Origin: a virus
Direction: 5' to 3' (one strand)
Virus genome (UHGV): UHGV-0072939
Length of the DNA: 55,033 nt
Shown here: piece by piece, positions 5,345 to 49,429 of the stretch
Layout: the number at the start of each line of letters is the position of its first letter
Position numbering within the stretch: the stretch's first letter is position 1
Program-made: the position numbers and the translations under genes
The notes under the pieces: generated by a model
Database searches by the model: none
Seen by the model: the letters and a program-made list of their open reading frames with translations, nothing else
Told to the model about the DNA's origin: nothing

Positions 5345-5782
5345 TTAACGTTGCTCCCATATCCAGTAAAACCTGAATTCCTGCCAGTCTTTGCCCGGTG
5401 CCAGATACCGGATGATGAGGTTCAGGCGGTTCGGCATGACGATCTGCGCAACGGGGATAACATCGCTGACCACGCCATCATCCTTAAGCCAGGCAAGAGC
5501 CTCGCGCGCATATTCCTCCGCTCTTTTCGCCACGTCGGTCGTCAGTTTCTGCCTCCGGAGTAACCACAACCTTGACCCGAGCTGCGATTCATCACCAGAA
5601 TCCCCCCACCAGCCACGGCGATCGCTGCCTTCATAATCGTCATCCGCGCGCGCCAGCCGGTCGGTAAACAGGCTGTCCAGTATCGCGGTCTGTAAATCGT
5701 ACCCGGTGGTGAGTGCACCCGGGCCTTCCTGCCAGTCGGCAACCATCTCGTCCACGTTCCAGAAAGAGGCAATGTCGCTCAT
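5345..5782 (-). CDS. baseplate protein, Mu gp46-like
   Basis: 145 aa; position between V-like and J-like genes; recalled GP46 family features. Confidence 0.7.
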   Translation of the reverse strand: MSDIASFWNVDEMVADWQEGPGALTTGYDLQTAILDSLFTDRLARADDDYEGSDRRGWWGDSGDESQLGSRLWLLRRQKLTTDVAKRAEEYAREALAWLKDDGVVSDVIPVAQIVMPNRLNLIIRYLAPGKDWQEFRFYWIWEQR

Positions 5783-6363
5783 GTCACCTGCTCCTCGGGT
5801 TGTTCACTGCGGATATCGTCATTGCCTCTCTGGGCATTTTTAACCAGGTGATCGTGGTCGTTGTGTGCATCCCGCAGGTCTTTCAGCGTTCTGCTGTTGG
5901 TGTCGCAATTGTCCACGATGTCGCCGGTACATCTCAGAAGCGGGGTGTTCGCCAGAATCCCCTTGCTGGCGTTAATGGTCACGCTTGTGGCGTTGTTGAC
6001 TTCCACATCCCTGCCTTTTGCATCGACAAATACCCCCTCTTTGGTCAACAGCACCTCCTGCCCCCACTGGCTGTAGATAACGGTTTCGCCGTCTTTCAGC
6101 CCGGTGCGCCGGTACCCCTGATGATTCGTGGCAATGACCACCGGACTTGAACGGTCACCGCCAATAAAGGCCAGGACCACGTCGGTGCCTTTTGGCAGCC
6201 CGGAAGAAAAGCCAAACTCGGCGAGCCGCGGCGCGCTGGCGACCTCAAGCGGCGTCTGGTACTGAACAGTCTGCACAACACCACTGTCTTTCAGCGCAGT
6301 GATCCGGCCAATGCCCAGCATGCTGGCGATGCGGGTGGCGGCGCGCCTGACTAACTGGTTCAT
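5779..6363 (-). CDS. baseplate assembly protein V-like (Mu gp45)
   Basis: 194 aa; synteny; N-terminal OB-like region typical of gpV spike proteins. Confidence 0.7.
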   Translation of the reverse strand: MNQLVRRAATRIASMLGIGRITALKDSGVVQTVQYQTPLEVASAPRLAEFGFSSGLPKGTDVVLAFIGGDRSSPVVIATNHQGYRRTGLKDGETVIYSQWGQEVLLTKEGVFVDAKGRDVEVNNATSVTINASKGILANTPLLRCTGDIVDNCDTNSRTLKDLRDAHNDHDHLVKNAQRGNDDIRSEQPEEQVT

Positions 6364-8911: not shown

Positions 8912-10717
8912 TCAGTAAGACATGGGCAGCGTGATCCTGCCACCATCCCGGGTAATGTATTCCTTCCGTTCCCCTTTCCCGTCCACCATAGTGATTTCAA
9001 GCTTCATCTTTTGCTCTTCCATGGCACTTTTAAATGAGCGGGTGAGGTTTTCGGTCAGCACCTGCCCCGAGGCGCCCCCCTGCGATGCTGGCTGGATAAT
9101 GCCGGTTCCGGCCGTTCGCTCCGTCACCGGGGCGTCAGAAAAAACATTGTCAGGCGGATTTTCTGCATTAATGATCCGCTGGTAATGTCCAAGTACCGCG
9201 CCGGGATAGGCCTGATTTTCCTGCCCCCACCGGCGGGTGTCGTAACCGCCGTTGTAATATCGAAGCGCCAGCGGAACATTACCGCCCGAATTCTTCAGGT
9301 TCTCGGACAGAATTTGCGCACCTGCCATGATGTTTTGCCGCGGGTCGGTCCAGTCGGTAACGCCGGTCGACTGGAAATTTGACGGCATGATCTGCATCAG
9401 CCCTTTAGCCCCGGCTTTGCTGACTGCCTGCGGGTTACCTCCGGACTCCTGGGTCATTATGGCCTTCAGCAAGCGGGGATCCACACCGTATTGCTTGCCG
9501 GCTTCATTGAGTAGAACGTCATACTGTCCGCCCTGGTTATACGGTACATAGTTATTGCCGCCGACAGCAGGTCGGGTAATGGCAGCCATATCATCCTGCA
9601 GCTGGTTCGCCGTATCCGTCGCCCGGTAATTCGCATCGTAGCGTTTGCTCACGGCATCCGTCATAAACCCGGCATCCACCATCCCGCGCTCGCTGCGGGG
9701 CAGGCTGTTATAGAGTTCCTTGTCACCCTGAATACGGCGCAGTTTGGCCGCGTCCGCGCTGCTGATAAACCCCAGCGCATGCGACAGGCCGGTGAAATCG
9801 CCGTTGGTAAACAGGTCTGTCACGCCCTCGAGGCCGTCTTTCACCGACCCGTCGGAAAGCAGGCCTTTGAACAGCTTATTCTGCGATCGCTGCTTCAGTC
9901 CATCCCATGAGGCGCCCAGTTCGTTCATCGTGCCGTTGATATCGGACAGTTGTTTATTAAGTTCGGGATCGACCGTCAGCCCAAACGTATCGGATTTCGC
10001 CAGCAGGGTTTTCATGCGCTCGCCTTCACGCATCAGCGCCAGCATTTCAGGGGTAAAACCCATCGCATCAGCGACAGATTTCTGCTGCTCTGGTCGCAAC
10101 GTCGGGAACACGCGCGCGATCTCTTCCATGGTTTTGAGCGTATCGACTGAACCATCCTTGTTTTTCTGGATCTGCACACCAATTTGCGACAACGCGCCAA
10201 GGACCTGACCGTTTGCACCGCTGGCCGCTTCCTTCAGCGTTTTTGCCATCCCTTCAATCGATGCATTTGCGCTTTCGCTGTCAGCCCCCAGAATACGCAT
10301 GGCGCCCGCGAGCCGGGTAAAATCATCAACCCGCATACCGGCGTTTTTCGACGCTGTATCCAGGTTATACGCCTCCCGGGAGGCCTCCCGAAAACCGTAG
10401 GCAACCTGCTGAAGGCCATATCCTGCCGCCCCAACAGCACCGAGCGCACCCAGCTTGCCGGAGATTTCCCCCACCATTTTTAGCGGGGGAACCATATCAC
10501 CGATGAACTGCACGTTATCCCGCGCGCTCTTCGACATATTCTCCAGGCGTGAAATAAAACCGTTCAGCCCGTCGACCGTCTCCTGGCCGCCTAACTGGAG
10601 CCCTTCTTTGGTTTTATTCAGTTTCGGTTCCAGATCGCGGATAGCTTCGTCAATCCGGGTTATCGCGTCACTGACCTGATCGCTGGCCACCAGCTCAAAA
10701 TCAAAAGAATTACTCAT
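8912..10717 (-). CDS. tail tape measure protein with C-terminal lytic transglycosylase (SLT) domain
   Basis: 601 aa; C-terminal LLKAIMTQESGGNPQAVSKAGAKGLMQIMPSNF matches the SLT catalytic motif (ES...GLMQ); position after chaperone pair. Confidence 0.8.
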   Translation of the reverse strand: MSNSFDFELVASDQVSDAITRIDEAIRDLEPKLNKTKEGLQLGGQETVDGLNGFISRLENMSKSARDNVQFIGDMVPPLKMVGEISGKLGALGAVGAAGYGLQQVAYGFREASREAYNLDTASKNAGMRVDDFTRLAGAMRILGADSESANASIEGMAKTLKEAASGANGQVLGALSQIGVQIQKNKDGSVDTLKTMEEIARVFPTLRPEQQKSVADAMGFTPEMLALMREGERMKTLLAKSDTFGLTVDPELNKQLSDINGTMNELGASWDGLKQRSQNKLFKGLLSDGSVKDGLEGVTDLFTNGDFTGLSHALGFISSADAAKLRRIQGDKELYNSLPRSERGMVDAGFMTDAVSKRYDANYRATDTANQLQDDMAAITRPAVGGNNYVPYNQGGQYDVLLNEAGKQYGVDPRLLKAIMTQESGGNPQAVSKAGAKGLMQIMPSNFQSTGVTDWTDPRQNIMAGAQILSENLKNSGGNVPLALRYYNGGYDTRRWGQENQAYPGAVLGHYQRIINAENPPDNVFSDAPVTERTAGTGIIQPASQGGASGQVLTENLTRSFKSAMEEQKMKLEITMVDGKGERKEYITRDGGRITLPMSY

Positions 10718-11138: not shown

Positions 11139-11510
11139 TTAGTTCTCCGTTACTTCACGGCCTTCCCAGCGAACATCAAATACAGCATCTTCGCTTTCCA
11201 CTTCCTGAACATTTACCGTCCAGAGCCCTTCACCAATAATCGTTTTACCATTTGCCAGCTCCGCAACGATGTTGACGTTGGTTTGCTCGTTAAAGCCCAG
11301 AACATTAGTCCCACCGCTATCACGTAAGCGGGCTGAGATGTACGGGGCTACAGGCTTTTCTTTATACCCGTGAACACCATCCATCCCCGTTAATGTCGTC
11401 CGATTAACCTTAGAGGGCTGATATTTAAAAGACCCTTCAACCATCACCGTCACACCGTTAACGGTGACGTACGCGGTCCCCGCCAAGCGGTTAGAAGTAT
11501 CACCTGCCAT
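11139..11510 (-). CDS. tail tube protein (Mu gp40-like)
   Basis: 123 aa; directly downstream of sheath gene. Confidence 0.75.
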   Translation of the reverse strand: MAGDTSNRLAGTAYVTVNGVTVMVEGSFKYQPSKVNRTTLTGMDGVHGYKEKPVAPYISARLRDSGGTNVLGFNEQTNVNIVAELANGKTIIGEGLWTVNVQEVESEDAVFDVRWEGREVTEN

Positions 11511-13213: not shown

Positions 13214-13759
13214 TTACTCCTGGAGGTTGAGGCTGATACCAGGCTGTGGCGTACCGTCGGGTACGACAATCGCGATATCCACGCCTTCAAGGGGAACCGC
13301 CTGAACGGGATAAAAGTCTTCCGGCCCCTGATAATGTTCGATGTCGATTTCAAGCAGCAGCTGGCCCATATGCGCTTCACCGTCGGCATCGACATTGATG
13401 GTTGAGCGCACCTCGGCGTATTTCTGGATCTTCCGGGTCAGCTCATAGCTGTTGATGACCGCGCGCTCCACCTGATCCCGCAGCGCTTCCAGCGCCAGCT
13501 CTGCTTTCATCGCGCCATCATCTGTCGTATCGCCGTCGTACTCCTGTACCCGGCCAGTAATTCTGACGGTGGTGATGGTAGTAAACGCCGGGGTGTTCCG
13601 CCCCTGCGACTTTTTTTGCTCAAACGGCGTCTGAACCAGCAGCGCCGGATACAAGTCCACCGATGTTGACCAGTCGCGGGGGGAATACACGCTGCTGCCG
13701 GCGTCCGTGGCGCCGGTCAGCGCCGTGACCACCATCTGTCGTACTGCTGCTGCATTCAT
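13214..13759 (-). CDS. tail completion / neck protein (Mu gp37 position)
   Basis: 181 aa; synteny only. Confidence 0.45.
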   Translation of the reverse strand: MNAAAVRQMVVTALTGATDAGSSVYSPRDWSTSVDLYPALLVQTPFEQKKSQGRNTPAFTTITTVRITGRVQEYDGDTTDDGAMKAELALEALRDQVERAVINSYELTRKIQKYAEVRSTINVDADGEAHMGQLLLEIDIEHYQGPEDFYPVQAVPLEGVDIAIVVPDGTPQPGISLNLQE

Positions 13760-14115
13760 CGTTGTTTCACCACGTTAAGAACGAGTTTTGAGCCGCCATG
13801 GCTGTCCGGTTCGACGTTTGATACCACGAACAACTGATTCACAGGCTTTCCGCCGGCGGTTTTGATAAAGACACGATCGGACACCGCCGGGAGCGGTCTG
13901 CCGGAGTCTGTAAACTCTGCATCGCGCACCCCCAGTACCGGGCTCGTGGTATTTATCGCTGAATCACCGTCCAGATTTTCGGTTACCTGGGCGTAACCGC
14001 GGTCGAAAATGCCGTTTATCAGAAAGGGAGTACCGTTTCGGGGGCGGTACTCTTGCTCGTCGCCGAAGACACCATGCAGCGGACTCAGGAGGTGTAAATC
14101 CCAGTCCACGCCCAT
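13756..14115 (-). CDS. head-tail joining protein (putative)
   Basis: 120 aa from internal ATG 14115..14113 (the upstream part of the 174-aa ORF overlaps the neighbouring gene); synteny. Confidence 0.45.
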   Translation of the reverse strand: MGVDWDLHLLSPLHGVFGDEQEYRPRNGTPFLINGIFDRGYAQVTENLDGDSAINTTSPVLGVRDAEFTDSGRPLPAVSDRVFIKTAGGKPVNQLFVVSNVEPDSHGGSKLVLNVVKQR

Positions 14116-14119
14116 GGCA

Positions 14120-14473
14120 TTACCCCGAAGTGACTGTGACGGAGGGCTGGGCCGCCAGCACGCGCTGACGCAGTACACTGACATCGGCAATAATGCCCGC
14201 CTGCAGCAGGCGCTCTGCATCCTGGCCAGTGACCGGAATGACACTGTTTTCCCGGTAGACTTCGCCGTTGTGGCGGACACTGTTGCCCTTCAGGACAACG
14301 AATTCCGGCCCTTCCCTCTCATCATCGGCCTGAACTTCAGGATCACCTGCCATATTCAAATCATCAACGGATGGTTCTGTGACCAGGTCGGTTCCCCCGG
14401 CATTCAGGTTATCAATCCCAGGGTCTGCATTCAGATCGGCTGCAGGTGCCGGACTGTTTGTTGCTTTCGCCAT
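14120..14473 (-). CDS. hypothetical head-associated protein
   Basis: about 117 aa from ATG 14473..14471; immediately downstream of major capsid gene. Confidence 0.4.
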   Translation of the reverse strand: MAKATNSPAPAADLNADPGIDNLNAGGTDLVTEPSVDDLNMAGDPEVQADDEREGPEFVVLKGNSVRHNGEVYRENSVIPVTGQDAERLLQAGIIADVSVLRQRVLAAQPSVTVTSG

Positions 14474-19382: not shown

Positions 19383-21512
19383 TTATTGCGGCAGGAGTTT
19401 TGACAGTCGCTTACGTTTGACGGGTGCAGGCTCTTCAATAACGGCCCCCGGTAATTCGTAGCTGATGGTTTCTTCCGGTACGGCCGGCGCCAGCAGGAAT
19501 TTATCCGGATTGGCTTCCAGATTCGCGGCGCGCACGTTCAGCTTGAGCCCCATGTGCATCAGGCCACACAGCGCGGCGTAGCTATACACCCGGCAGTCGA
19601 GCGCTTCGTTTGCCCTGCCGGGAATGGCTTCCCAGACGCTGAAGCGCTGCCCGGCAATGACTTTGTACACAAGGCGCTCAGCCAGCAGCTGGTTGAAATA
19701 GCCGATATCCCGATCGTCAGGGAAATGCATATACCCCGGCGCGGCCATACCCGGCGCAGGTGGCTCGATATGCAGCCGCCCGCGGATCACATCCTTCGCG
19801 GAGTTGACCCCCAGAATGATCGGCCGGAACTGCGCCTTGCTCTTCGATGAAGGACGTTTGGTTGGCCAGACCGGATTTCGCTTGCCTCCTTGTGCCGATT
19901 CACCTTTGACAGCCCAGATTCGGCGGTTGAGCCGCTCTTTCGCAAACTCGTAGACCTTCTGGGTATGGTGACCGCCGGAGTCATGGCAGGCCGCCATAAT
20001 GGTCAGTCCCCTGCCATCGTTCCGGCGCCATATCTGCTTCAGGTACGCATCCAGACGCCGCCAGGGTTCATCCGTTTCCAGATCGCCGTAGATGACATCA
20101 TGGGAGACAGACCAGGACTCTTCGTTTTTACCCCAGCCCGTCACTTCGATTTCGAAGCGATCGTCCTGGGTATCAATCCCGGCCGTCAGCAGGGCAACAC
20201 CATCCGGCACTTTCGCCGGAAAGACCTCCCTGCGGGCCAGCAGGATATCCACCGGCAGCTGCTTGCCGTGGTTTGGTCGGTGCGGCAGTCCCATCTGGGT
20301 ATTCCACCAGGCCTGCTCTTTATCCGGGTCTCCCTTCGCTTTGATGTATTTTTCAGCGATGTCAGCGGGTTTATCCTTCTGCCAGGGGCTGAACAACTTG
20401 GACGCCTGGTACCCGGCATGGTGGTTATCGACCGCTTCACGCCCACAGTCAGGACAGATGGCGCGGTAAACCGCATGGCGTTCAGATTCCGACCATCGCC
20501 ATACTTTTTCAATGCTGCCGTCATCCTCTGCCCGCCAGGCCAGATCATAATCCATCAGCGGTGAATGCCTTTCTCCGCAGCACTCGAACGGCCGGGTCTG
20601 ATGCCAGCGAATGGTCTGCAGAGCCCTTAGCCGCTCCCCCTCCGACCAGCCGGCACCACAGCACTCACAGTGGAGCATCGCTGATTTGGTCATGTGTTTA
20701 TCCCCGTCCTTCGGCCACTGGACGTGTTTAAAAAAGTCAGGAAACTGTCGGTGACCACAGTGCGGACACACCACCGAGGCCCGGCGCTGGTCAGATTCGG
20801 CATAGCTGTCGGCAATCCGGCTTTCGTCTTCCACCGTCGGCGAGCAGGCACGAACCGACAGCCAGGTGAGACCAAACGTCGCCGTGCGCTCTTCCGCCAG
20901 CGCAATGGGGTCGCCTTCGCGGGTGATCGGGTATTTATCCACCTCATCCGCCAGCAGGACACGAATCGGACGGCGCGCGAGGTTATCGGGACTACCGGCA
21001 CCCGCCAGCGCCAGAAAGCCGCCGGTGAACGCCTTATAGAGAATGGTTTCTTTCGAGCTCTTCTGCTTTGAGTCGCCGATGATTCTGCGCAGTGCCGGCG
21101 TCACCCTCACCAGCGGGCTGATGCGTTCCTTCGAGAACTGCTCGGCCGCTTCCTCTTTCGGCTGCAGCAGCAGTATCGGGCAGGGATCGAGATGCGCGAA
21201 ATAACCAAACAGGTTTTCCAGCAGCGCGGTTTTCATCAGCTGCGTGCAGCACATCACCGTAATGATGTGAACGCCTGATTCTGTCGCCGCCAGCATCGGG
21301 CCGCGGGCGATCTCCACGGTGGACGTCTCCCAGTTGCCCGACGTACTCCCGGCTTCCTTCGCCAGTTTGCGATAATCATCAGCCCACTGCGGAACGCTGA
21401 TCCTCGGCGGCGGCGTCCAGCCTTTTCGGACGCTCAGCTCAAGACGCTCAATCTTCTGCCGGGGTAAATTCTGGCTCTCCGAGGACTGAGATATGTTTGT
21501 GGACATGTTCAA
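19383..21512 (-). CDS. terminase large subunit, lambda gpA family
   Basis: 709 aa; size, position and recalled GpA family resemblance. Confidence 0.9.
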   Translation of the reverse strand: MNMSTNISQSSESQNLPRQKIERLELSVRKGWTPPPRISVPQWADDYRKLAKEAGSTSGNWETSTVEIARGPMLAATESGVHIITVMCCTQLMKTALLENLFGYFAHLDPCPILLLQPKEEAAEQFSKERISPLVRVTPALRRIIGDSKQKSSKETILYKAFTGGFLALAGAGSPDNLARRPIRVLLADEVDKYPITREGDPIALAEERTATFGLTWLSVRACSPTVEDESRIADSYAESDQRRASVVCPHCGHRQFPDFFKHVQWPKDGDKHMTKSAMLHCECCGAGWSEGERLRALQTIRWHQTRPFECCGERHSPLMDYDLAWRAEDDGSIEKVWRWSESERHAVYRAICPDCGREAVDNHHAGYQASKLFSPWQKDKPADIAEKYIKAKGDPDKEQAWWNTQMGLPHRPNHGKQLPVDILLARREVFPAKVPDGVALLTAGIDTQDDRFEIEVTGWGKNEESWSVSHDVIYGDLETDEPWRRLDAYLKQIWRRNDGRGLTIMAACHDSGGHHTQKVYEFAKERLNRRIWAVKGESAQGGKRNPVWPTKRPSSKSKAQFRPIILGVNSAKDVIRGRLHIEPPAPGMAAPGYMHFPDDRDIGYFNQLLAERLVYKVIAGQRFSVWEAIPGRANEALDCRVYSYAALCGLMHMGLKLNVRAANLEANPDKFLLAPAVPEETISYELPGAVIEEPAPVKRKRLSKLLPQ

Positions 21513-22011
21513 TCAGCACCTCTGTCATCCTGTCCGCCGGTACATCCAGATCAGCGGCCATCAGCGGCGCCACCCTGGACGGCCAGTTGAGCCAGGCATC
21601 ACGCTGCTGGCGAAAGGCGTTGAAAAGAACCTCCTCGGCAACCACCAGCTCAACGAGCTGGCCACTGTCTTTTTCGTACTGCAGTTTGGCCTGCAGGGCC
21701 ATATAGTTTTCGCGGATACGCGCCGCCTCCTCCCGCGAAAGGCCTGCGCCTTCGGTGAGCATTATCTGGCGTACGGTATTCCCGATGTCATCCCCGTCAT
21801 CATCGCTGGCAACAGGGGCTTTCTTTTTCTTCGCGTTCGAAGCGCGCGGGTCTTTGCCATCGCGGTTTTTCTTCAGTGCGGCATCGCTGGCCTGAACATC
21901 AATCAGGTCCCCATCCATCACAATGAAGCGACCCGCTTTAATCCAGCGTCCGATGGTCTTGCGATCGACACCCGAATGTTGTGCGTACTGACTCTGGTTC
22001 ATCGTGGTCAT
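21448..22011 (-). CDS. terminase small subunit, Nu1-like
   Basis: 187 aa; N-terminal HTH-like region (QYAQHSGVDRKTIGRWIKAG); overlaps start of the large subunit; adjacent to a repeat array. Confidence 0.7.
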   Translation of the reverse strand: MTTMNQSQYAQHSGVDRKTIGRWIKAGRFIVMDGDLIDVQASDAALKKNRDGKDPRASNAKKKKAPVASDDDGDDIGNTVRQIMLTEGAGLSREEAARIRENYMALQAKLQYEKDSGQLVELVVAEEVLFNAFRQQRDAWLNWPSRVAPLMAADLDVPADRMTEVLIEHVHKHISVLGEPEFTPAED

Positions 22012-22158
22012 GGGACATCACCTGGGACATTTTCAGGGGTGGGACATTTACCTGGGACATTTTTGCGATGTCCCACCGGAATGTCCCACTGGAATAAACA
22101 GGAATAGCCAGCACTGGTGCGGTGTCAGGCGCGATCGCCCCGGGTGGGACATGGGACA
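22011..22158. repeat. array of 7-8 copies of TGGGACA(T) in both orientations upstream of the terminase small subunit gene; candidate cosB/terminase-binding region
   Basis: copies read directly at 22011, 22023, 22040, 22053, 22145, 22152 (direct) and 22068, 22081 (inverted). Confidence 0.55.
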
Positions 22159-22252
22159 CAAATCTGAAACCTGTAGCTAGGAAAACACCGCGGCGCGCAA
22201 TGCCCGTGCAATATGATCCCCTCAGGAAGGACCCAAACCCACCGGGGTGGGG

Positions 22253-22606
22253 TCACAAGGCATGCTGGAAAAGAAAAATACGCGTGATGCTATCCTGACG
22301 GAAATGGAAACGATCGCGGGCAATGTTTAACAATCCACCCTCCCCGAACCGCTCAAACTCTTCGGCGCAGCGTATGGCGTCATCAAAAACATAAATATCG
22401 GGCGGCGGTAATGTGAGGCTTCTCACGTTGTCTGCGGGGAGAATACGGCCACCAAAGAGACCTGGGCGGATATTATTCACATCACGCATCGTAGGTACGA
22501 TTAATTGCACATGCAGACCAGCTGCTTCAAATCCACTCGCTAATGCCAGTGCGGCGCTTGTCATTCCACTATGGCGCTTAATAAGAATTGTTGCTGTGTT
22601 GCTCAT
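22253..22606 (-). CDS. hypothetical protein (117 aa)
   Basis: GAGGA SD before ATG 22606; no family recognised. Confidence 0.4.
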   Translation of the reverse strand: MSNTATILIKRHSGMTSAALALASGFEAAGLHVQLIVPTMRDVNNIRPGLFGGRILPADNVRSLTLPPPDIYVFDDAIRCAEEFERFGEGGLLNIARDRFHFRQDSITRIFLFQHAL

Positions 22607-22613
22607 GATGTCC

Positions 22614-23255
22614 TCATTTCGCTGTTCGGAGCGCCTCCGCTATAGCCTGATTCAATGCAGACGGTAGCAGCGCGTTGGCCATGGAGTTTGCCCGGTCCAT
22701 ATAGCCCAGCGTGGGTTTTACTGGCAACGCGTCACCAAAGCGGATAAGCAGTTTTGGCGTGCGTTGTTTAACCTTCTCCCGACGCGTTCCATTCGGCGAG
22801 CGTTTCGCCCGCTTCTTCCCTTTCCTGGTCCTGGCCTTTCTGCGCTGCCAGACGGCGTTAACACCACCGACATCACCGATGAAAACATTTGGCTTCGCCT
22901 TAAGCTGAGAAAGCTTGTTACGCGGCAGGTTGCCGAATTTATTCAGCTTAATGTCTTTGGGATTTAGCAGCGCGCTGCCATTGAGCTTATGTTCGCCGCC
23001 AAACTCAAACGGCTCGAGGTAATCCGCGGCAGTATCGCGAACGAACACTTTCGCGCGCAGACTGTTTTTTCGGGCAGCCACAGAGCCGACCGACTTCACG
23101 GTGAAAGGTGTGGGATTGTCCAGATGACGTTCGAACGCCGTTTTCTGAGCCGTTTCTATCTGCCGAACGACCTTTGTCATCGCCTGCGCAGTTGCGAATG
23201 GGATTTGTTTTTGCAGCTGCTGGAGCTGGCGGGATAAATCCTTCAGTGCCGCCAT
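22614..23255 (-). CDS. hypothetical basic protein (213 aa, Lys/Arg-rich centre)
   Basis: ORF with start at 23255..23253; no family recognised. Confidence 0.4.
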   Translation of the reverse strand: MAALKDLSRQLQQLQKQIPFATAQAMTKVVRQIETAQKTAFERHLDNPTPFTVKSVGSVAARKNSLRAKVFVRDTAADYLEPFEFGGEHKLNGSALLNPKDIKLNKFGNLPRNKLSQLKAKPNVFIGDVGGVNAVWQRRKARTRKGKKRAKRSPNGTRREKVKQRTPKLLIRFGDALPVKPTLGYMDRANSMANALLPSALNQAIAEALRTAK

Positions 23256-23256
23256 A

Positions 23257-23685
23257 TCAGATGTCCGGTTTTACAGATAACCCTTCTACCTTGTCGCGGG
23301 CAATGGCGACGCACAGTCGCATCAGAAGTACCACCAGCACATAACACACGGCGGTGAATACCCAGCCGGAGAATGAGAGCAAAGAGGCGATGGCCGCATC
23401 TTCAACCCAGCGCAGCACCCGGAAGAAAATCCCTTTTTTCTTCGTTGCGTCACTGATGGACTCAATCGCTTTTTGTCTGGCGTCTTTGCCCTCAATGCCA
23501 GACGCCCCATAGCTAACAATAAGAATGATGGCGCTGGCAAATAAACCGGCGAACATAATTACCCAATAGGCGGCAGCAGATACACCGATCAGCGACTTAG
23601 CCCCGGTAAATGTCGCATAGCCGAGCAACAATAGAATCCCGTATGAAAAGATGCCGATGATAACCTTGATAAAAAACTTACTCAT
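23257..23685 (-). CDS. hypothetical multi-pass membrane protein (142 aa)
   Basis: several hydrophobic helices; lies just downstream of Rz. Confidence 0.45.
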   Translation of the reverse strand: MSKFFIKVIIGIFSYGILLLLGYATFTGAKSLIGVSAAAYWVIMFAGLFASAIILIVSYGASGIEGKDARQKAIESISDATKKKGIFFRVLRWVEDAAIASLLSFSGWVFTAVCYVLVVLLMRLCVAIARDKVEGLSVKPDI

Positions 23686-23821
23686 GGTATTTCCTTTTAG
23701 GCGTGAGCCTGTCGCATGGCAAAGCCGCCAAGAGCAAACGACTCACCCAGGCTCACCACTGAAAGTCTCTTTTAGGGAATGCGCATGCGAAGCGCATGAA
23801 AAAGCCCCGCATGAGCGAGGC

Positions 23822-24352
23822 TTAATGGTTTTGCAGGGCAGCGTATGCCCTTTGACATGCATCTCCCCTTATTCGGGATTCGTCAGCAATTTCTGCCAGT
23901 CTCTGCGCGCGTTCGTCAGCGCGAGCGTACAACTCGGCGAGCACTCCGGCACCAGGGGTTGTTGCACGGCTTCCGGTGGCAGTGCCGGTATTGCCGGAGG
24001 CGCGACTTTGCTGCAGCTGGCGGGCGTAATCGGCGACCTGCTGGCGCAGGCTGTCAGCGTCAGTACGAGCGTGAGCAGCATCAGCCTGAGCGCGGGTGAG
24101 TTGCTGAGATGCCTGCGCGGCGGCTTTGGCAATACCATTCTGTCTCTCCTGTTCGGTTTGTCTGTTTTTAGCCTGCAGGTCAGCTACCGCCTGTACGTCA
24201 GCAGCATCGCGGGCAGTCCATTTTTCCTGCCAGGCGTTATCAGTGGCTGTAACACCCGCGACATATCGCCAGTGACCAAAGGCCCATAACGACAAAGCCA
24301 CCAGCACGATTAGCGCCAGTGGCTTCCAGTACTTCCCCAGGAGAAGCGTCAC
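23822..24352 (-). CDS. i-spanin Rz-like lysis protein
   Basis: 176 aa; N-terminal TM helix then long Ala/Gln/Arg-rich coiled-coil; ATGA overlap with lysozyme gene. Confidence 0.7.
   Translation of the reverse strand: MTLLLGKYWKPLALIVLVALSLWAFGHWRYVAGVTATDNAWQEKWTARDAADVQAVADLQAKNRQTEQERQNGIAKAAAQASQQLTRAQADAAHARTDADSLRQQVADYARQLQQSRASGNTGTATGSRATTPGAGVLAELYARADERAQRLAEIADESRIRGDACQRAYAALQNH
23869..24081 (-). CDS. o-spanin Rz1-like lipoprotein embedded in Rz in the +1 frame
   Basis: 70 aa from ATG 24081; lipobox LTAC, Pro-rich mature region. Confidence 0.6.
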   Translation of the reverse strand: MLLTLVLTLTACASRSPITPASCSKVAPPAIPALPPEAVQQPLVPECSPSCTLALTNARRDWQKLLTNPE

Positions 24353-24789
24353 GACAAGAACAGAGCGCGCTCTGCCTCACGCCGTTTGACCAGGCCATTA
24401 AGCACTTTACCGCCGGCTTTATTCCATTTCGGAAACTCATCAGCTGCGCCGCGGTAATCGCCAGCGTTCAGCTTCTTCAGCAGCGTGGAGCTTTCAAGTG
24501 CCCCGACGCCGATGTTATATGCGAAGCCCACCAGCGCATCGAACTGGTTCTGGTTCAGCACCACCCTGACCAGACGATTCACGCCGTTTACGTACTGCAC
24601 TACACCGCTCACCAGCAGGTTATCGGCAGTAGCCTGTGTAATAATCATTCCACTACCGACCGGAACACCACCTACAGGCTGCGTCCATCCATAGCCGATG
24701 GTCCATACGCCTACACTGTCCTGATAGGCCGACAGGCGACAGTCCTCGAATTGCTTGATAAGGGAGAGACCCTTTCCACTGATTTGCAT
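24349..24789 (-). CDS. endolysin, glycoside hydrolase family 24 lysozyme
   Basis: 146 aa from ATG 24789 (TAATG overlap with upstream gene); MQISGKGLSLIKQFEDCRLSAYQD and GYGWT motifs typical of T4/P22-type lysozymes. Confidence 0.85.
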   Translation of the reverse strand: MQISGKGLSLIKQFEDCRLSAYQDSVGVWTIGYGWTQPVGGVPVGSGMIITQATADNLLVSGVVQYVNGVNRLVRVVLNQNQFDALVGFAYNIGVGALESSTLLKKLNAGDYRGAADEFPKWNKAGGKVLNGLVKRREAERALFLS

Positions 24790-25064
24790 TACGTTGCCCT
24801 CACAAATTTTGCCAGATTGCCGCCAGCAAGCCACACGGCAATGCATACCGTCACATTGATCATGAATTCGCCGGGGTCAACCTGCATATAATCGCCGTGG
24901 ATGATCCGGAACGCGGTATACCCGGCGGAAAGAATAATCAGGTAGGCAAACACCGAGACGCCCAAGCGGTGAGCTTTTCCGGCTTTATTGAAAAACAGCA
25001 GCCGGAACATAATCAGCAGGCATATCATCGCGTTTGCATGAAGCATCAGGTATTGCCATGTCAT
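24789..25064 (-). CDS. small membrane protein, holin/antiholin-like
   Basis: 91 aa with 2-3 hydrophobic helices, between holin candidate and endolysin. Confidence 0.5.
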   Translation of the reverse strand: MTWQYLMLHANAMICLLIMFRLLFFNKAGKAHRLGVSVFAYLIILSAGYTAFRIIHGDYMQVDPGEFMINVTVCIAVWLAGGNLAKFVRAT

Positions 25065-25459
25065 TCATCACCTCCATCCAGCCCAGGGAGTTTCCCTTTT
25101 TTGGATCTGGCCAGAATGCGAAGCAGAATAGCGACAGAAATGGAGGCAGCAACCAATGCACCGATATTCGGAGATACCTCAATAGTCACCGGCGGTGTTA
25201 ATACGCTCAATGCGGCATTGATCACGGCAGCCAGAATCTTCGCCATCGGTCCTGAGAAGGAAACCCCACCCAGGAACGAGATAACAGCGAATATTGCCTG
25301 TTTCCATATCTGGTGGGGATCAGAGGTCAACACATACAGTGCTGCACCACTCAGAGAGAAAACCATGACTCCTGGTGTCGCCTCCGGAAACCAGGTTGCT
25401 AGCGTCGCACCTACAAACCCGGCAGTTACGCCACCAGCTACAGTTACAGGATCGGACAT
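25061..25459 (-). CDS. putative holin (membrane protein)
   Basis: 132 aa, hydrophobic helices, charged C-terminus (RSKKGKLPGLDGGDE); first gene of lysis cassette. Confidence 0.55.
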   Translation of the reverse strand: MSDPVTVAGGVTAGFVGATLATWFPEATPGVMVFSLSGAALYVLTSDPHQIWKQAIFAVISFLGGVSFSGPMAKILAAVINAALSVLTPPVTIEVSPNIGALVAASISVAILLRILARSKKGKLPGLDGGDE

Positions 25460-27211: not shown

Positions 27212-28081
27212 GTGACCAATACTACTTCTTTTCAGATCTTCTATGATGCAGAAGATACTGAATTGGCACAGCATAAAATTGATGCAAAAACACTTAGCAT
27301 TTCCATAGGTTCTATGGCTGATTTGATTTCAGCCGCTGATAAACGGCTTAACGACGGTCAACAAACTGTGAAGTTGATGGTTACAAACCCGGCGGAGGCT
27401 GGCTCTCTCGGCGTATCCTATACGATGATGGAGCTTGTTCCGCATGCAATCAATGTTGCGAAAGTGATCGGATTGACAGGGTTAGCTGGCGCCGCAATTG
27501 GTGCACCTGCATTATCATTAATTCGACAGTTGGGAAGTAAGAAAGTCATTTCCATCACGAAACGAGCTGGTACAGACCAATCCGTTCTTGAGCTCGAAGG
27601 TGAAGAAATTGTTTGTCATGATTCTGTAGCCAAGCTAGTGACTGATCCAGAGATTAGGAATGCTTTAGTGAACGTAGTGCGAGCACCTTTAGACGGGAAA
27701 GAAGGCGCAGTGTTCAAAGTTCTGAATGAAGACGGTGTTGAAGTCGTGCGCTTGGAAGGTGAAGAAACTGAGGAAATAAAACCGCTTCCTAGGGGCACTT
27801 TGCTGGAAAAAGAAGAATCAGTGGAAGAAGTAAACGTAAGATTCGTCCAAATAAACTTCGAAGGAACAAAAGGTTGGAGGATTGAGTACCTCGGAGAGGA
27901 ACACGCTGTTTCGTTTGAGGATCAACTTTTTATACATCAAGTCCAAAATGGGATTGTTAGTTTCACCAAAGAAGATTTGTTTGTAGTTGACCTCAAAACA
28001 ACAAAAACTTTCACTGCACGTAATGCTTCAACCAAGTATGCTATAACCAGAGTTAAGCGAAAACGCCCTGCTGAGGCTTGA
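27212..28081 (+). CDS. hypothetical protein (289 aa), first gene of AT-rich three-gene operon
   Basis: long ORF; GTG at 27212 is the first in-frame start after a stop; a 10-codon upstream ORF (ATG 27180) ends TAG overlapping this GTG; no family recognised. Confidence 0.5.
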   Translation: MTNTTSFQIFYDAEDTELAQHKIDAKTLSISIGSMADLISAADKRLNDGQQTVKLMVTNPAEAGSLGVSYTMMELVPHAINVAKVIGLTGLAGAAIGAPALSLIRQLGSKKVISITKRAGTDQSVLELEGEEIVCHDSVAKLVTDPEIRNALVNVVRAPLDGKEGAVFKVLNEDGVEVVRLEGEETEEIKPLPRGTLLEKEESVEEVNVRFVQINFEGTKGWRIEYLGEEHAVSFEDQLFIHQVQNGIVSFTKEDLFVVDLKTTKTFTARNASTKYAITRVKRKRPAEA

Positions 28082-28137: not shown

Positions 28138-28347
28138 ATGATCATTCCTACCTTTAGTCGTTTCTGCTATTCGGCATCTGCTTTGCTATGGCGTCGATTG
28201 TTTCCTACCAGGACCTTTGAGTTCCGGTATCACGATGAAGATACTGGTACAACTAAAACACTCATTGTTAAGGTACCAAGAAAAAACGGGAAAATGCTTA
28301 CCAGTCTTATTGATGAGGCTATTTCGGAGAATTCAAAACAAAAATGA
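28138..28347 (+). CDS. hypothetical small protein (69 aa)
   Basis: ATG 28138 with GGAG SD 7 nt upstream; stop TGA overlaps next ATG (ATGA). Confidence 0.45.
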   Translation: MIIPTFSRFCYSASALLWRRLFPTRTFEFRYHDEDTGTTKTLIVKVPRKNGKMLTSLIDEAISENSKQK

Positions 28348-28766
28348 GTTCTCAAAGTAAAGGGTTAAGTACTGGAAAAGCGACACTTTCCACTGGAGGT
28401 TGGGGAGCAATACTCAGCGTTTTAGTTGGTGCTGTTCTTACCGACCCCAACAGTGTGTGGAGGACGGTTGCTTATGCCCTAGTGCCAGGTGTTGCTGCTG
28501 TCCTTACCTACGTGATGAATTGGTTCATTTCTCGGCATGGGTTTGAATCACCAGAAGATGCAGCTAAACGAGCGAAGTGTAAACGCGATTTAGCAGAGAT
28601 CGAAAAACAGCTACGTTCAGAGCATTTAACCTCTGAAATTGAATCTAGGCTGATGCAGGCAAAGGCCAAGACAATTGAAATACTCGTTTCTATTGGCAGC
28701 GACTCAATCCTTGAGGCCTCATCACGTTCGAGCCAACTACCAGATACTGCCGGGCCCAAAGGCTGA
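28344..28766 (+). CDS. hypothetical membrane protein (140 aa, two predicted TM helices, charged C-terminal half)
   Basis: hydrophobic segments GGWGAILSVLVGAVL and VAYALVPGVAAVLTYVMNWFI; translationally coupled to upstream gene. Confidence 0.55.
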   Translation: MSSQSKGLSTGKATLSTGGWGAILSVLVGAVLTDPNSVWRTVAYALVPGVAAVLTYVMNWFISRHGFESPEDAAKRAKCKRDLAEIEKQLRSEHLTSEIESRLMQAKAKTIEILVSIGSDSILEASSRSSQLPDTAGPKG

Positions 28767-42839: not shown

Positions 42840-43045
42840 ATCTTGAATGCGTACCCATATCAACTTACTGCCGTGACTCCGGCGAGACCGTAGAAGCTGT
42901 TAATAAACGGATACAAAGGGGATTATGGCAGGAAGGGGTCCATATATTAAAGATCGATGGCGTAAAAGAGCGCTGGATTGATTTAACTGAGGTCACGAAA
43001 TGGGCGAGAAAAAACAAGGATCCTTACAGCTCCCACGCGGTATAA
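42836..43045 (+). CDS. excisionase-like protein
   Basis: 69 aa immediately upstream of and overlapping the integrase gene. Confidence 0.5.
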   Translation: MNLECVPISTYCRDSGETVEAVNKRIQRGLWQEGVHILKIDGVKERWIDLTEVTKWARKNKDPYSSHAV

Positions 43046-44175
43046 CCGCGCGCCATCATAAGAACGGCTCAACACTTATTATCACGTTCACATATAAAGG
43101 GGTTCTATGCCGGGAACCCCTTTCCCGTATCGAGCTGAATCCAAAGGGTATAAAATATGCAGAACGCCTCCTGGGAGAGGTTCAGAACAGAATTGCGGAG
43201 GGTGATTTCGATTATGCCAAATACTTCCCAAAATCTAAGAAGTTGGATATTTTTGGGAAAGTTAACCGGACAAAAAACATCAAGTCTTATCTCGATGAAT
43301 ATCTGGAGATCTGCGCAAATCGAAACTTATCGCCATCGACAATTGGAGGGTATGAAAAATGCCTCTCAGCTCTGTCTGATTTACATAAACTACACGTCGC
43401 CGAGCTTACACCGGCAGTATTGAAAAACTGGATCGCCAGCCGGAAAACAAAGCTTAAAACGATACGAAACAACCTCTCATTTTTGCGTAGCGCAATCGAT
43501 GAGGCAGTGACTGATGGGCTGTTGACGATAAACCCGGTTACGCTTGTCAGCGCCAGCCGGTACCACGTGATCGACAGCACGCCGAACCCCGACGATTACG
43601 AGGTGGATCCGTTCACACCTGCAGAGGCCAGCGCCATTTACATGCACTGCAGGTTTCAGGAATGGGAAAACCTGTTCCGCTTTGCATTTAACACCGGGAT
43701 GCGTAGTTCTGAACTGTGCGCGTTGCGCTGGCCTGATATCGACTTTATCGAGAATACTGCTCACGTTCAGGCAGCCAGCGTTGTCGGTGTGCTGAAGGGT
43801 ACCAAGACAAAAGCTGGTACCCGTAAAGTCGAGCTGAATAGCGATGCGCTGTCGGCGCTGCAGGCGCAAAAGCCATTCACCTTTATGAAGAGCGATTTCA
43901 TCTTCAGCGATCCTAAAACAGAGAAACCATGGGCAAACGCTGATGCGATTCGAAAAAAGGCCTGGGTCCCCACGTTGAAGAAAGCAGGAGTTCGGTACCG
44001 AAACCCATATCAAACACGCCATACGTTCGCTACGCGCCACATCAGCCAAGGCGTTAACCTTTTCTGGTTGGCCGGGCAAATGGGGCACAAAGGACCGGAA
44101 ATGTTGTTCCGTCACTATGGTTCCTACCTGGCTGCTTATGATGGGAAAACGGCAATTGAAGCGAGGAAATTTTGA
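43000..44175 (+). CDS. tyrosine integrase (lambda Int family)
   Basis: 391 aa; C-terminal catalytic region with R...HTFATRH...Y pattern (RHTFATRH, HYGSY). Confidence 0.9.
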   Translation: MGEKKQGSLQLPRGITARHHKNGSTLIITFTYKGVLCREPLSRIELNPKGIKYAERLLGEVQNRIAEGDFDYAKYFPKSKKLDIFGKVNRTKNIKSYLDEYLEICANRNLSPSTIGGYEKCLSALSDLHKLHVAELTPAVLKNWIASRKTKLKTIRNNLSFLRSAIDEAVTDGLLTINPVTLVSASRYHVIDSTPNPDDYEVDPFTPAEASAIYMHCRFQEWENLFRFAFNTGMRSSELCALRWPDIDFIENTAHVQAASVVGVLKGTKTKAGTRKVELNSDALSALQAQKPFTFMKSDFIFSDPKTEKPWANADAIRKKAWVPTLKKAGVRYRNPYQTRHTFATRHISQGVNLFWLAGQMGHKGPEMLFRHYGSYLAAYDGKTAIEARKF

Positions 44176-44479: not shown

Positions 44480-47400
44480 TCAGAACGACCAGTTCACACC
44501 AGCTACCGCGTTCCACGGGGATTCCACACCGGCACTATGGCTATACCCCACCCCAAGATGCCCGCTTAACGTACTGCTGAATGAGGCTTTAATACCTGCC
44601 TGGTATATTCCACGTCTGCCCGACAAATAATTGACGAAATTACCGTCACTATTCACTTTCACCCGGTTATCATCGACAAATTCTTTGCGCACAGCCGCCT
44701 TCAGCCACGGCTCAACTTCCATACCGTTCCCCAGACGCATGTTGTAACTCAGCGTTGCGCCCAGTTCACGATATATACTGCGGGTATCGACTGATTTCGA
44801 TTTCATGCCATTGGATAAATGATATTCGGGGTTATCAGCGGTGAACCCCGTTAACGATGCATACGGCGTCAGGTTCCAGTTACCATCGGTAAATCGCATC
44901 CCGGTTTCAATGTGACCGCCCAGCCCGTTGCTGTGGTAACTGCCATTGGCGGCTCCACCGCTGCTCATTTTACCTGCTACGTTACTTTTAAAACGGTTCA
45001 GCTTCACGACACCGTCCAGATAGAAACCACTTTCATGTTCCCAACTGGCATAGCCGCCCAGAGAATAACTGCCCACACTGCCATGTCCTCCGCGATCAAA
45101 ACCGATATGTGAATGGGAATAGCCCATAAAAGCGCCTAGCGTGGTAATTCCTTCAGGAATATCATTACGGCTGTCGATCCCCACTGTCATTCCGGTCAGC
45201 GTCTGCTCAAACCCGGCACCCGCATCGGTGGTGACATTATTACGGGTGTTATACGTCGCCCCCCAGACATTATTGTTGTGTGGACTCGCTTTCATTATGT
45301 TCAACCGCTCGCGAATACTGTTTAGCTCAGCATCAAATACCAACGGTAATGTTGCTGCCATATTGAGTACGGCTGCCGTAGAAGGCGTAATGCGTTTCTC
45401 CGGAACGGGTGTCGGCGTTGGATCGGGAGTAGGGTCTGGTTTTGGATTTGGGTCTGGCTTTGGATCGGGTTTTGGGTCTGGCTTTGGATTTGGGATGGGG
45501 TCCGGGTTGGGTTTGACATCATTGGTCAGGTTCCAGTTGCTGTTGCCGTCACTTTTCAGGACATACTCATAGGTCCCAAGATCAACGAAACCGCCGGTAT
45601 TGCCCAGCGTAAACGAAGCATCCCCTCCCCCTGTTTTCACCAGCGTCATCGCGTCGTCAGACTGTGGGCTGACGCCGGTATCCTGAACAAAGATTTTAAA
45701 ATTACCAGTGGCGTTGTTGTTGACGACCAGTTGATCGCCCCGGGAGCCTGCAACGTTGGTATGCAGGTAGAAATTACCGCTACCGGAAAGTTCATTGGTT
45801 GTCAGCGTATTGTAGATACCGTTAGTTGTGGCAGGCGCTGCTGTTTGTGCTGACAAATAAACATCACCGTCGTTGAGTAGCAAACTGTTTACTCTATATT
45901 CGCAGTTGCTGGTACCTGCACAGGAATTATTGCTGTTAAGCCAGACACTGCCCCGGCTGGCAGCCGTCAGGTCGGCAAGCGTGGTATCGACGCCATTTCC
46001 CAGAGTCAATGTCGCGCTATCGGTAATCCGGACCGCCCCTTCGAGTTTAACTGGCGTAACATTATCCCGTGGCGTCATTAACGACAGGCTTCCTGTCGCG
46101 CCACTGACCGATGCATCCGCCAGCGTACCTGCGTAGACGATTGCCGTACCGCCAGCGACCTGGAGATCTTCTGCCCGGGCCAGAGCCTGAAACTCATCTT
46201 TTGACCGCCCAAGGGTATATTGCCCGCCAGAGTTAACCTTTGTGGCGGAGTCCTGACCCAGGTTTTGCATTGCCCCACCCTTGCCAACCGTGGAGTCGCG
46301 AGCTTCGGTACCTGCTAATACCAATAAATTACCGCCATTTTCCAGCAACATATTAGTCGCTAAATTGCCGGAAATGGAAAAAGTACCGTACTGGTGAGTA
46401 CCGCTGATTTCAATACCGTTAGCCGTGCTCGTCTGGAGAGCGGCACCGCTGTTCTGGACGATATCTGTCGCTTTGCCATTATCGTTGACTGTCAGCGTAC
46501 CGCCTTCATTGATCTTTGTTTTTATTGCCTCTCCGTTAGCTGAAACTGTTTGTATTCCGCCGTCGTTAATTGTTGTCTCATTCGCCACACCCTCGACAAT
46601 TTGTTCACCGCCGGTGAGCGTCGTGCCTGTCGCAGTGGCTTTTGTTTTGACGATCTCCCGTCCGCCCATATTGACCTGTGTTTTGTCAGAAGAGGTGTCT
46701 GACTCCACGGTTAACACGCCGCCATTTGCCAGCAGGATATTGTTCGCCGCACCCTGCTCGATGCTGAACGCGACGCCATCCGCGCGTGTTCCTGTGACCC
46801 GCGTCGCCCTGGTGGTTGCAACCAAAGCGCCCTGGCTACTCTGCTGTATCCCCGTTGCGCTGCCTTTCTCCCGCACATCGAGTGTGCCGCCGTCATTAAG
46901 CACCGAGTTTTCAGCCAGACCGCCCTCATTAACTACCTGTGAACCCCCATTAATAATGGAACCTTCCGCTGTCCCGTTTGCCATAATTTGTTGTAGGCCA
47001 GAGACGATATCGGTATTGATTGCCTTACCATAATTCTGAACGGTTTGCGTGCCACCATTGATGTGTGTTTTCTCTGTTGACCCACCATCAACAATTTGTT
47101 CACCACTTTCGATATTTGCTTCAGTGGCTAAACCATATACCGTTTGCTTGCCACCTTTGATATTTGCTTTATCAGAAGTGGCACTGGCATATATTGTTTG
47201 GGTGCCAGCACTATTGAGTACAGTGCCAACATCTTTTCCATAAACATCCATTTTGCCGTTGGCATTAATAATCGTGTCAACTGCGCGGGAACCAGTGACG
47301 ACTGTTAATGAGCCAGCGTTTTCCAGCACTACATTTTTAGCTTCTGAATTCCTGATGTAGAAAGCATCACCATAACTGTTGGTTCCTTCGATAAGTGTTC

Positions 47401-49060: not shown

Positions 49061-49429
49061 AAATTTCATCCTCTGAAAAGTGAATACTGAGTAGCGTTTA
49101 AGCGACCTTAGCTTTGCTGCAACATCAGCCCACAGGCACCAGACCAGGGGATTCATCCTGAAGAGACAGCGCAAGTGTATTGTGTTCACCGCTCATCAAA
49201 GACATCATGATGAAATGATGATATTCCGCATAAGAATGAGGCATTTTTTAAACGCAGTGCGCTGAAGTGTGGTTGGATAAAAAAGTCAATCCATTCAGGA
49301 AATACGGGCGTATTCTTTTCTTTCGACAATGAGGCCGTTGGCAAAATAAAATGATTTACATAATCGTTTCTGATGAATATCTTCTGCTCACATAAAAATC
49401 ACACAATAACTTTGAGATCGCAGATTGTT

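Follow-up and report, generated by a model that had tools for sequence, protein, structure and literature searches.

The three adjacent genes considered here, designated A, B and C, occupy positions 22,253 to 23,685 of the virus genome UHGV-0072939. The term window refers below to the whole stretch of DNA that was analysed, which is 55,033 nt long. The three genes are:

23257..23685, minus strand: gene A, a 142-aa membrane protein with 3-4 transmembrane (TM) segments, a remote member of the P2 LysA family
22614..23255, minus strand: gene B, a 213-aa strongly basic protein, the predicted tail completion protein (TCP/Ne1), away from the neck cluster
22253..22606, minus strand: gene C, a 117-aa soluble near-orphan, inserted between B and cos

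A sequence-only reading had described this region as three unassigned genes between the spanin genes and the cos/terminase region, tightly packed on the late strand and encoding a multi-pass membrane protein, a strongly basic protein and a third protein of 117 aa. The three open reading frames (ORFs) were found with exactly these coordinates, sizes and strand. They are separated by 1 nt between the stop codon of A and the start codon of B and by 7 nt between the stop codon of B and the start codon of C, and Shine-Dalgarno motifs (AGGA/GAGGA) precede A and C. The flanks were also described correctly, with Rz/Rz1 upstream and cosN, terS and terL downstream, as were the membrane nature of A (3-4 strongly hydrophobic segments) and the basic character of B (pI 11.2). 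Taken together, the evidence makes it probable that the extreme right end of a cos-packaged chromosome carries A, B and C as mutually independent late genes, with the individual roles proposed below. Except for the displaced position of the TCP gene and the orphan C, the locus is ordinary.

B is very probably the TCP of this phage, of the kind represented by lambda gpZ, HK97 gp10, SPP1 gp16.1 and 80alpha gp51. In PHROGs, it matches phrog_1924 ("minor tail protein") over its full length (E 7e-62) and, weakly, phrog_27 ("tail completion or Neck1", E 1.5e-4). Its relatives number 1084 in a database clustered at 90 % identity, including 100 % identical proteins in E. coli and Kluyvera, and the family comprises 1294 clusters at 50 % identity. 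A dN/dS of 0.07-0.09 was obtained against homologous loci, as expected of a coding frame, and B is a conserved core morphogenetic gene rather than an accessory one. The connection to lambda gpZ is visible at the level of profiles: 14 of 101 representatives of the B family match PF06763 Minor_tail_Z (best E 2.4e-7), gpZ reciprocally matches phrog_1924 (E 1.9e-4), and the hidden Markov model (HMM) of the B family aligns the N-terminal 70 residues of gpZ, comprising its N-terminal helix, with 18.6 bits. A search of NCBIfam with B itself, a search of PDB sequences with the B-family profile and a scan with the distant family member P0158 returned no match.

The fold points in the same direction. 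The AlphaFold (AF2) model of B, which is based on an alignment of 101 family members, has a mean predicted local distance difference test score (pLDDT) of 94 and a predicted template modelling score (pTM) of 0.82. It begins with an N-terminal helix of 43 residues and ends with a C-terminal helix of 28 residues, between which lie a region of mixed beta and short-helix structure and a basic loop modelled with lower confidence. It thereby conforms to the TCP fold when this is tested as a long N-terminal helix, a beta-hairpin/loop apex and a C-terminal helix. The published topology of 80alpha gp51 is that of B, and it is shared by lambda gpZ, HK97 gp10 and SPP1 gp16.1, with a larger beta insert in gpZ (PMC11661146) to which the beta insert of B corresponds. 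B contains 43 Lys and Arg versus 15 Asp and Glu residues, with a stretch of charge +9 at residues 141-160. The loop (residues 138-168) varies in sequence across the family while its positive charge is kept, with a median of +6 and a charge of at least +4 in 93 % of the members; the median for the whole protein is +22. By analogy with the solved neck of 80alpha, one or a few copies of B would reside in the tail lumen at the neck. There, B would be attached to the end of the tape measure protein, and its positively charged loop may bind the end of the packaged DNA.

Several observations weigh against B as the TCP. Pfam (E<=1) gave nothing for B itself, and the hhalign comparisons of the B family with the single sequences of gpZ and gp10 were weak, with probabilities of 27 % and 1 %, respectively. 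The Foldseek E-value of 4.3 was not significant. In Serratia phage BZS1, the B homologue p72 was not among the 13 virion proteins identified by mass spectrometry (MS) of gel bands, although the sensitivity of this experiment was low, as it also missed the portal, adaptor and head-closure proteins (PMC7556043). Finally, the usual place of a TCP gene is between the genes for head closure and tail terminator (PMC11784142), whereas B is located between Rz/Rz1 and cosN, at a distance of about 8.3 kb from the FII-like gene (13756-14280).

The usual position of TCP genes is a positional custom and not a biochemical requirement. The canonical neck slot of the window is filled by four genes, encoding a 123-aa protein, the FII-like head-closure protein, an unrelated 181-aa protein and a DUF2635 protein, of which the third deserves attention:

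13214..13759, minus strand: 181-aa protein (phrog_6774), occupying the place of Mu gp37 and flanked by the FII-like gene and DUF2635/sheath

This protein is not TCP-like, since hhalign against the B family gave a probability of 0.1 %, and phmmer against the PDB returned only noise. Its position makes it the presumed tail terminator. The homologue in BZS1, p11, carries the annotation "ATP-binding tail sheath protein" and was detected in virions (PMC7556043). Neither the B-family HMM nor gpZ, gp10, gpS or gpG matched any ORF of the window other than B. As a second TCP-like ORF was not found in the window, B is considered to be the sole, displaced TCP.

The place to which B is displaced is the vicinity of the packaging site, where the following features were found:

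22192..22203, minus strand: cosN, predicted 12-nt cohesive end GCATTGCGCGCC, lying within 21 nt that are identical to the joined ends of BZS1
22011..22152, no strand assigned: cosB-like array composed of TGGGACAT / ATGTCCCA, directly before terS; the repeats are candidate sites for TerS binding
21448..22011, minus strand: terS (small terminase), the first gene past cos (phrog_57, E 1e-35)

The overhang of BZS1 was mapped experimentally by PhageTerm and PCR (PMC7556043). The cosN sequence of the window, which starts 49 nt beyond the stop codon of C, is identical to this cohesive end and is kept in many related IMG/VR loci. Between cosN and terS, TGGGACAT occurs in seven copies within 142 bp. 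The window as a whole contains nine copies versus 1.7 expected, a count reached by none of 100 shuffles, and the TGGGACAT and ATGTCCCA repeats of the array occur in both orientations. With cosN in this position, the chromosome packaged in the virion ends with the genes A, B and C.

The linkage of B to cos and the terminase genes extends far beyond this phage. Of 80 close IMG/VR loci, about 70 have terS starting 174-862 bp past the B homologue. Among the distant loci (27-39 % identity), 18 extend far enough downstream, and in 17 of these a GpA-type TerL starts after 0.5-1.6 kb. In Acetobacter phage phiAP1, the gene order is B, terS, terL and portal, and the linear genome of the cos siphophage Rhodobacter RcCronus starts with terS and ends with the B homologue. 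The cos-proximal arrangement is also present in Citrobacter phage phiNP and in BZS1. The linkage spans sipho- and myophages of Alpha-, Beta- and Gammaproteobacteria. As B is the last conserved gene before cosN, late transcription that runs across cos would reach it shortly before terS.

This conserved neighbourhood is the one mildly unusual trait of B. It would allow a functional coupling of B to the DNA end, and it bears on two further explanations. According to the first, B would not be a virion protein at all but a basic DNA-binding cofactor of the cos/terminase machinery, for example one that bends cos or protects the ends, and the gene would be locked to cos, terS and TerL for that reason. 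The position beside cos, terS and a GpA-type TerL, which is strongly kept in close and distant relatives, the net charge of about +22 across the family and the absence of p72 from the BZS1 virion proteome are in line with such a cofactor; we nevertheless regard it as quite improbable. The second explanation retains B as a TCP but makes the B family part of a packaging-specificity module, with C as a new late protein that acts at cos or against host defence. B would then be locked to the series cosN, cosB, terS and GpA-type TerL because it recognises the specific cohesive DNA end that rests in the tail. Recognition of the cohesive end was reportedly once proposed for lambda gpZ. If this were true, TCP, cos and terminase would be inherited together, but the combined proposal appears rather unlikely.

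Gene A adjoins the lysis cassette. The last gene pair of this cassette lies directly upstream of A:

23822..24352, minus strand: Rz, i-spanin (PF10721, E 5e-26; phrog_312, E 3e-49)
23869-24138, minus strand: Rz1, embedded in Rz, an ORF with a lipobox

The hydropathy of A, with a Kyte-Doolittle maximum of 2.5, suggests TM1 at about residues 5-25 and TM2 at about residues 32-58, followed by a hydrophobic stretch of 37 residues (98-134) that may correspond to one or two TMs. In PHROGs, residues 14-136 of the 142 residues match phrog_162 (E 1e-7); A is regarded as coding since it matches a protein family present in many phages. This family is defined by P2 LysA (1.8e-67), and closer relatives of A match it at 1e-10 to 1e-13. 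A comparison of the A family with P2 LysA by hhalign gave a probability of 96 % (E 5e-9), with residues 86-137 at identical positions in both, and BLASTP found 43 % identity over residues 106-135. The multiple alignment of A and LysA is collinear and contains a conserved GW(V/I)FTA motif. On this basis, A is a remote relative of P2 LysA. It is rare, with three homologue clusters in a database of 5.8 billion proteins, in which the homologues carry the label PF28015. In 34 IMG/VR loci, relatives with 25-45 % identity were found, whose upstream neighbours are mostly spanins and endolysins, with some Ant/Rha genes, and whose downstream neighbours are terminases. The copy in Hafnia phage Pocitis76 is annotated as a putative antiholin.

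P2 LysA is a non-essential protein with four TMs that influences the timing of lysis; it is considered to be an antiholin and to delay lysis (PMC3091744). With respect to nomenclature, the PHROG label and the RefSeq product name "endolysin" for phrog_162 and P2 lysA (1510-1935 in the P2 locus, L013) are misleading, and this label will spread a wrong annotation to relatives such as A. By analogy with P2, A would most likely be a LysA-like inner-membrane protein that modulates holin triggering. A lysis-timing role is slightly favoured over its absence.

The reservations about this role of A concern both the homology and the gene context. The significant similarity to LysA detected by hhalign is limited to 52 residues in the C-terminal half, and the antiholin role of P2 LysA itself goes back to old genetics. 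The lysis cassette already holds two holin-family genes. One relative of A lies among the early genes of the lytic Serratia phage MTx, beside the primase gene. Moreover, A starts 136 bp after Rz, past a hairpin, and is thus outside the cassette:

23802..23823, minus strand: terminator-like stem-loop (stem of 9 bp, then UUUUU), immediately past the stop codon of Rz, between the lysis cassette and A

Two stable hairpins were found at 23779-23823 on the minus strand, and the fold of 23775-23830 has an energy of -24.2 kcal/mol (z -4.8). The hairpin at 23802-23823 was not flagged by a consensus terminator scan. The terminator-like element falls inside the late operon.

An alternative is that A is a moron-type membrane protein unrelated to lysis control, serving for example superinfection exclusion or the response to membrane stress, in a recombination-prone slot between spanin and terminase genes. 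The mosaic nature of this slot agrees with such an origin, since it carries Ant/Rha genes and other cargo in related loci and two near-identical phages (L099 and L100) lack A, as do the separation from Rz, the MTx relative and the presence of two holin-family genes. However, the homology to P2 LysA, although remote, is significant and collinear and extends to the same protein length, and most relatives of A come directly after spanin or endolysin genes. An unrelated moron is therefore a possible but less favoured explanation of A.

C is neutral and soluble, has neither a signal peptide nor a lipobox, and lies on the late strand. Its known distribution is very narrow: four homologue clusters with 64-98 % identity were found among 5.8 billion proteins, plus two IMG/VR contigs. 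No match was obtained in Pfam, PHROGs, NCBIfam or PADLOC, nor with its profile against the PDB. Tblastn did not detect C in phage and plasmid records, and it was also absent from 185,579 species-representative genomes in two scans and from JGI metagenomes in one scan. On sequence evidence, C is a genuine gene because its dN/dS is 0.10 at a dS of 0.89 and the full-length frame is intact in all copies. Every copy lies between a B homologue and cos. Alignment with "empty" loci shows that C and its 7-nt spacer form a precise 361-bp insertion, and in about 30 loci B is directly followed by the 242-bp cos region without C. The G+C content at third codon positions (GC3) is 0.47 versus 0.61-0.70 in B, terS, terL and portal. 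A good ribosome binding site (RBS) for C lies 7 nt past the B stop codon. No sigma-70-like promoter site was found in 21400-24400, which makes co-expression of C with the late operon probable. A hairpin past C folds no better than shuffled sequences (z -0.9). Of the traits of a moron, C thus exhibits presence/absence polymorphism at a fixed site and deviant base composition, whereas an own promoter or terminator was not found. It would be a rare, horizontally acquired, small cytoplasmic protein that is co-transcribed with the late operon, and it may be guessed to be a dispensable accessory factor.

The slot between B and cos also accommodates other cargo. Instead of C, it holds a reverse-strand gene for a protein with a signal peptide (secreted/lipoprotein-like) in 41 loci, about half of the related phages; these are L014, L050 and 39 other IMG/VR loci, with the gene at approximately 5640-6360 in locus coordinates.

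More specifically, C might be a moron that encodes either a late-expressed protein for counter-defence or host takeover, or an exclusion factor. The insertion relative to sister genomes, the deviant GC3, the very narrow distribution and the purifying selection on C are consistent with this, as is the variable cargo of the slot. Against it, C is unlike any PADLOC, Pfam or PHROG family, its AF2 fold prediction is unreliable (pLDDT 56), and the missing promoter leaves the expression during lysogeny that an exclusion factor would need unsupported. Such a role is therefore doubtful at present. Its rarity and low-confidence structure model could also be explained if C had no function, as a frame open by chance or as the decaying remnant of a larger gene of P-loop/Rossmann type. 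The N-terminus resembles a degenerate deviant Walker A/B motif (KRHSGMTS ... DIYVFDD), but only by eye. A chance or decaying frame is very unlikely in view of the dN/dS of 0.10 at a dS of 0.89, the full-length frame kept at 64-98 % identity in four clusters and the strong RBS. The related idea of a degenerate ParA/MinD-like P-loop fragment was rejected, as it was based on inspection by eye and had no tool support.

The relationship between the three genes can be examined in L099 and L100, in which C is identical or near-identical. These loci match the window at 93-96 % from inside B (position 23220) through the head genes. Upstream of 23220, they share only short patches with the window and contain no A. 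The slots on each side of B have therefore been exchanged independently, and A, B and C do not form a functional unit. The sequence-only reading had pointed to accessory genes such as lambda bor in the interval between Rz and cos. The three genes are neither a related trio nor an accessory block of the bor kind, and B is a core morphogenetic gene. The statement in that reading that none of the genes matches a family remains valid for C but not for A (phrog_162) or B (phrog_1924 and the TCP fold). For B, the term "unassigned" has to be given up, as homology to known structural proteins, which the same reading had named as grounds for abandoning it, was found. Among the functions that it had suggested, a lysis regulator fits A as a remote LysA homologue and a virion-associated protein fits B with its TCP fold, while the data on C speak neither for nor against an exclusion factor.

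The phage itself is temperate and integrated, and it combines lambda-type packaging and head genes with a Mu-type contractile tail. Upstream of A, on the same strand, the lysis cassette consists of the two holin-family genes at 25061-25459 and 24789-25064, a Phage_lysozyme endolysin and Rz with the embedded Rz1. Downstream of C follow terS, a GpA-type terL, gpW, a lambda-type portal and a protease, and the tail genes further on are Mu-like (DUF2635, sheath, tube and chaperone). The tube protein is encoded at 11139-11510 and the tape measure protein at 8912-10717. This gene architecture is that of Serratia phage BZS1 and Citrobacter phage phiNP. An integrase at 43000-44175 is followed by a host AIDA-type autotransporter, which identifies the element as an integrated prophage. 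Megablast searches with the region gave only short matches, at query positions 75-218 (over Rz) in phages and at the cos-to-terS end in complete E. coli genomes.

Some further genes of the window are worth recording. An island of low GC at 27-29 kb (about 0.43) contains a 289-aa ORF at 27212-28081 on the plus strand, opposite to the late genes and upstream of a dam methylase gene. The full length of this ORF aligns with the PADLOC candidate defence gene PDC-S42 (E 2e-31), whereas Pfam gave no match, and it is likely a prophage-borne anti-phage defence moron. Its neighbour, a 140-aa ORF at 28344-28766, had no match. An Acyl_transf_3 acyltransferase gene at 1510-2628 on the minus strand is adjacent to the tail-fibre region, with a possible role in lysogenic conversion through O-antigen modification. 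On the far side of the integrase, 44480-49189 on the minus strand encodes the autotransporter, a 1569-aa protein of the AIDA/pertactin type, accompanied by low-GC genes (DUF5507 and DUF5508). These genes belong to the host or to another island.

These findings do not overturn current understanding, but they have practical consequences for annotation. Hundreds of B homologues, including those of phiNP and BZS1, are labelled "hypothetical protein", and assigning the family removes a false "unknown" from many enterobacterial prophage annotations. Position rules for neck proteins miss a large TCP subfamily that is located immediately upstream of cos. The location and role of TCPs were resolved structurally only in 2024-25. 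A subfamily that is genetically tied to cos-type terminases therefore makes it possible to examine whether TCPs read the DNA end. C, as a well-defined orphan under purifying selection, is a reasonable candidate for functional screening.

Among the known systems, 80alpha gp51 (HK97 gp10 family; PDB 9mu2 chain P) is the structural reference for B, to which it has only 11 % identity. B is twice as long and has an extra beta insert and a highly basic loop of 30 residues. The phages differ as well, since 80alpha is a headful siphophage while the phage of the window is a cos-packaging myophage with B outside the neck cluster. The closest sequence family is that of lambda gpZ (PF06763, phrog_27), as indicated by the reciprocal weak profile matches and the alignment of the N-terminal helix. 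Both proteins have an Arg/Lys-rich central loop, and both belong to a cos phage with a GpA-type terminase. However, B stays below the Pfam threshold, lambda Z is located between FII and U whereas B is located between the lysis genes and cos, and the tail is contractile and Mu-like, unlike that of lambda.

Mu gpG (gp31) and P2 gpS are listed with the same predicted fold as other TCPs (PMC11784142), although neither has detectable sequence similarity to B and their genomic locations differ. Mu G is also situated away from the neck genes, between gp30 (F), which follows the portal gene, and the protease gene I. A TCP gene outside its usual place is therefore not unprecedented in a Mu-type tail system.

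For A, the reference is P2 LysA, which has 141 aa compared to the 142 aa of A. Both are multi-pass proteins with a C-terminal GW(V/I)FTA...R..R(D/Q) at identical positions, but the identity is about 24 % and the holins of the two phages belong to different families. P2 lysA lies between the endolysin gene K and the spanin gene lysB, whereas A follows the spanins and the hairpin. Finally, lambda bor and other morons occupy the same interval between Rz and cos, with cargo that varies between sister phages. None of A, B and C is homologous to Bor; the closest parallel to bor in position and orientation is the reverse-strand signal-peptide gene that takes the place of C in the 41 related loci.

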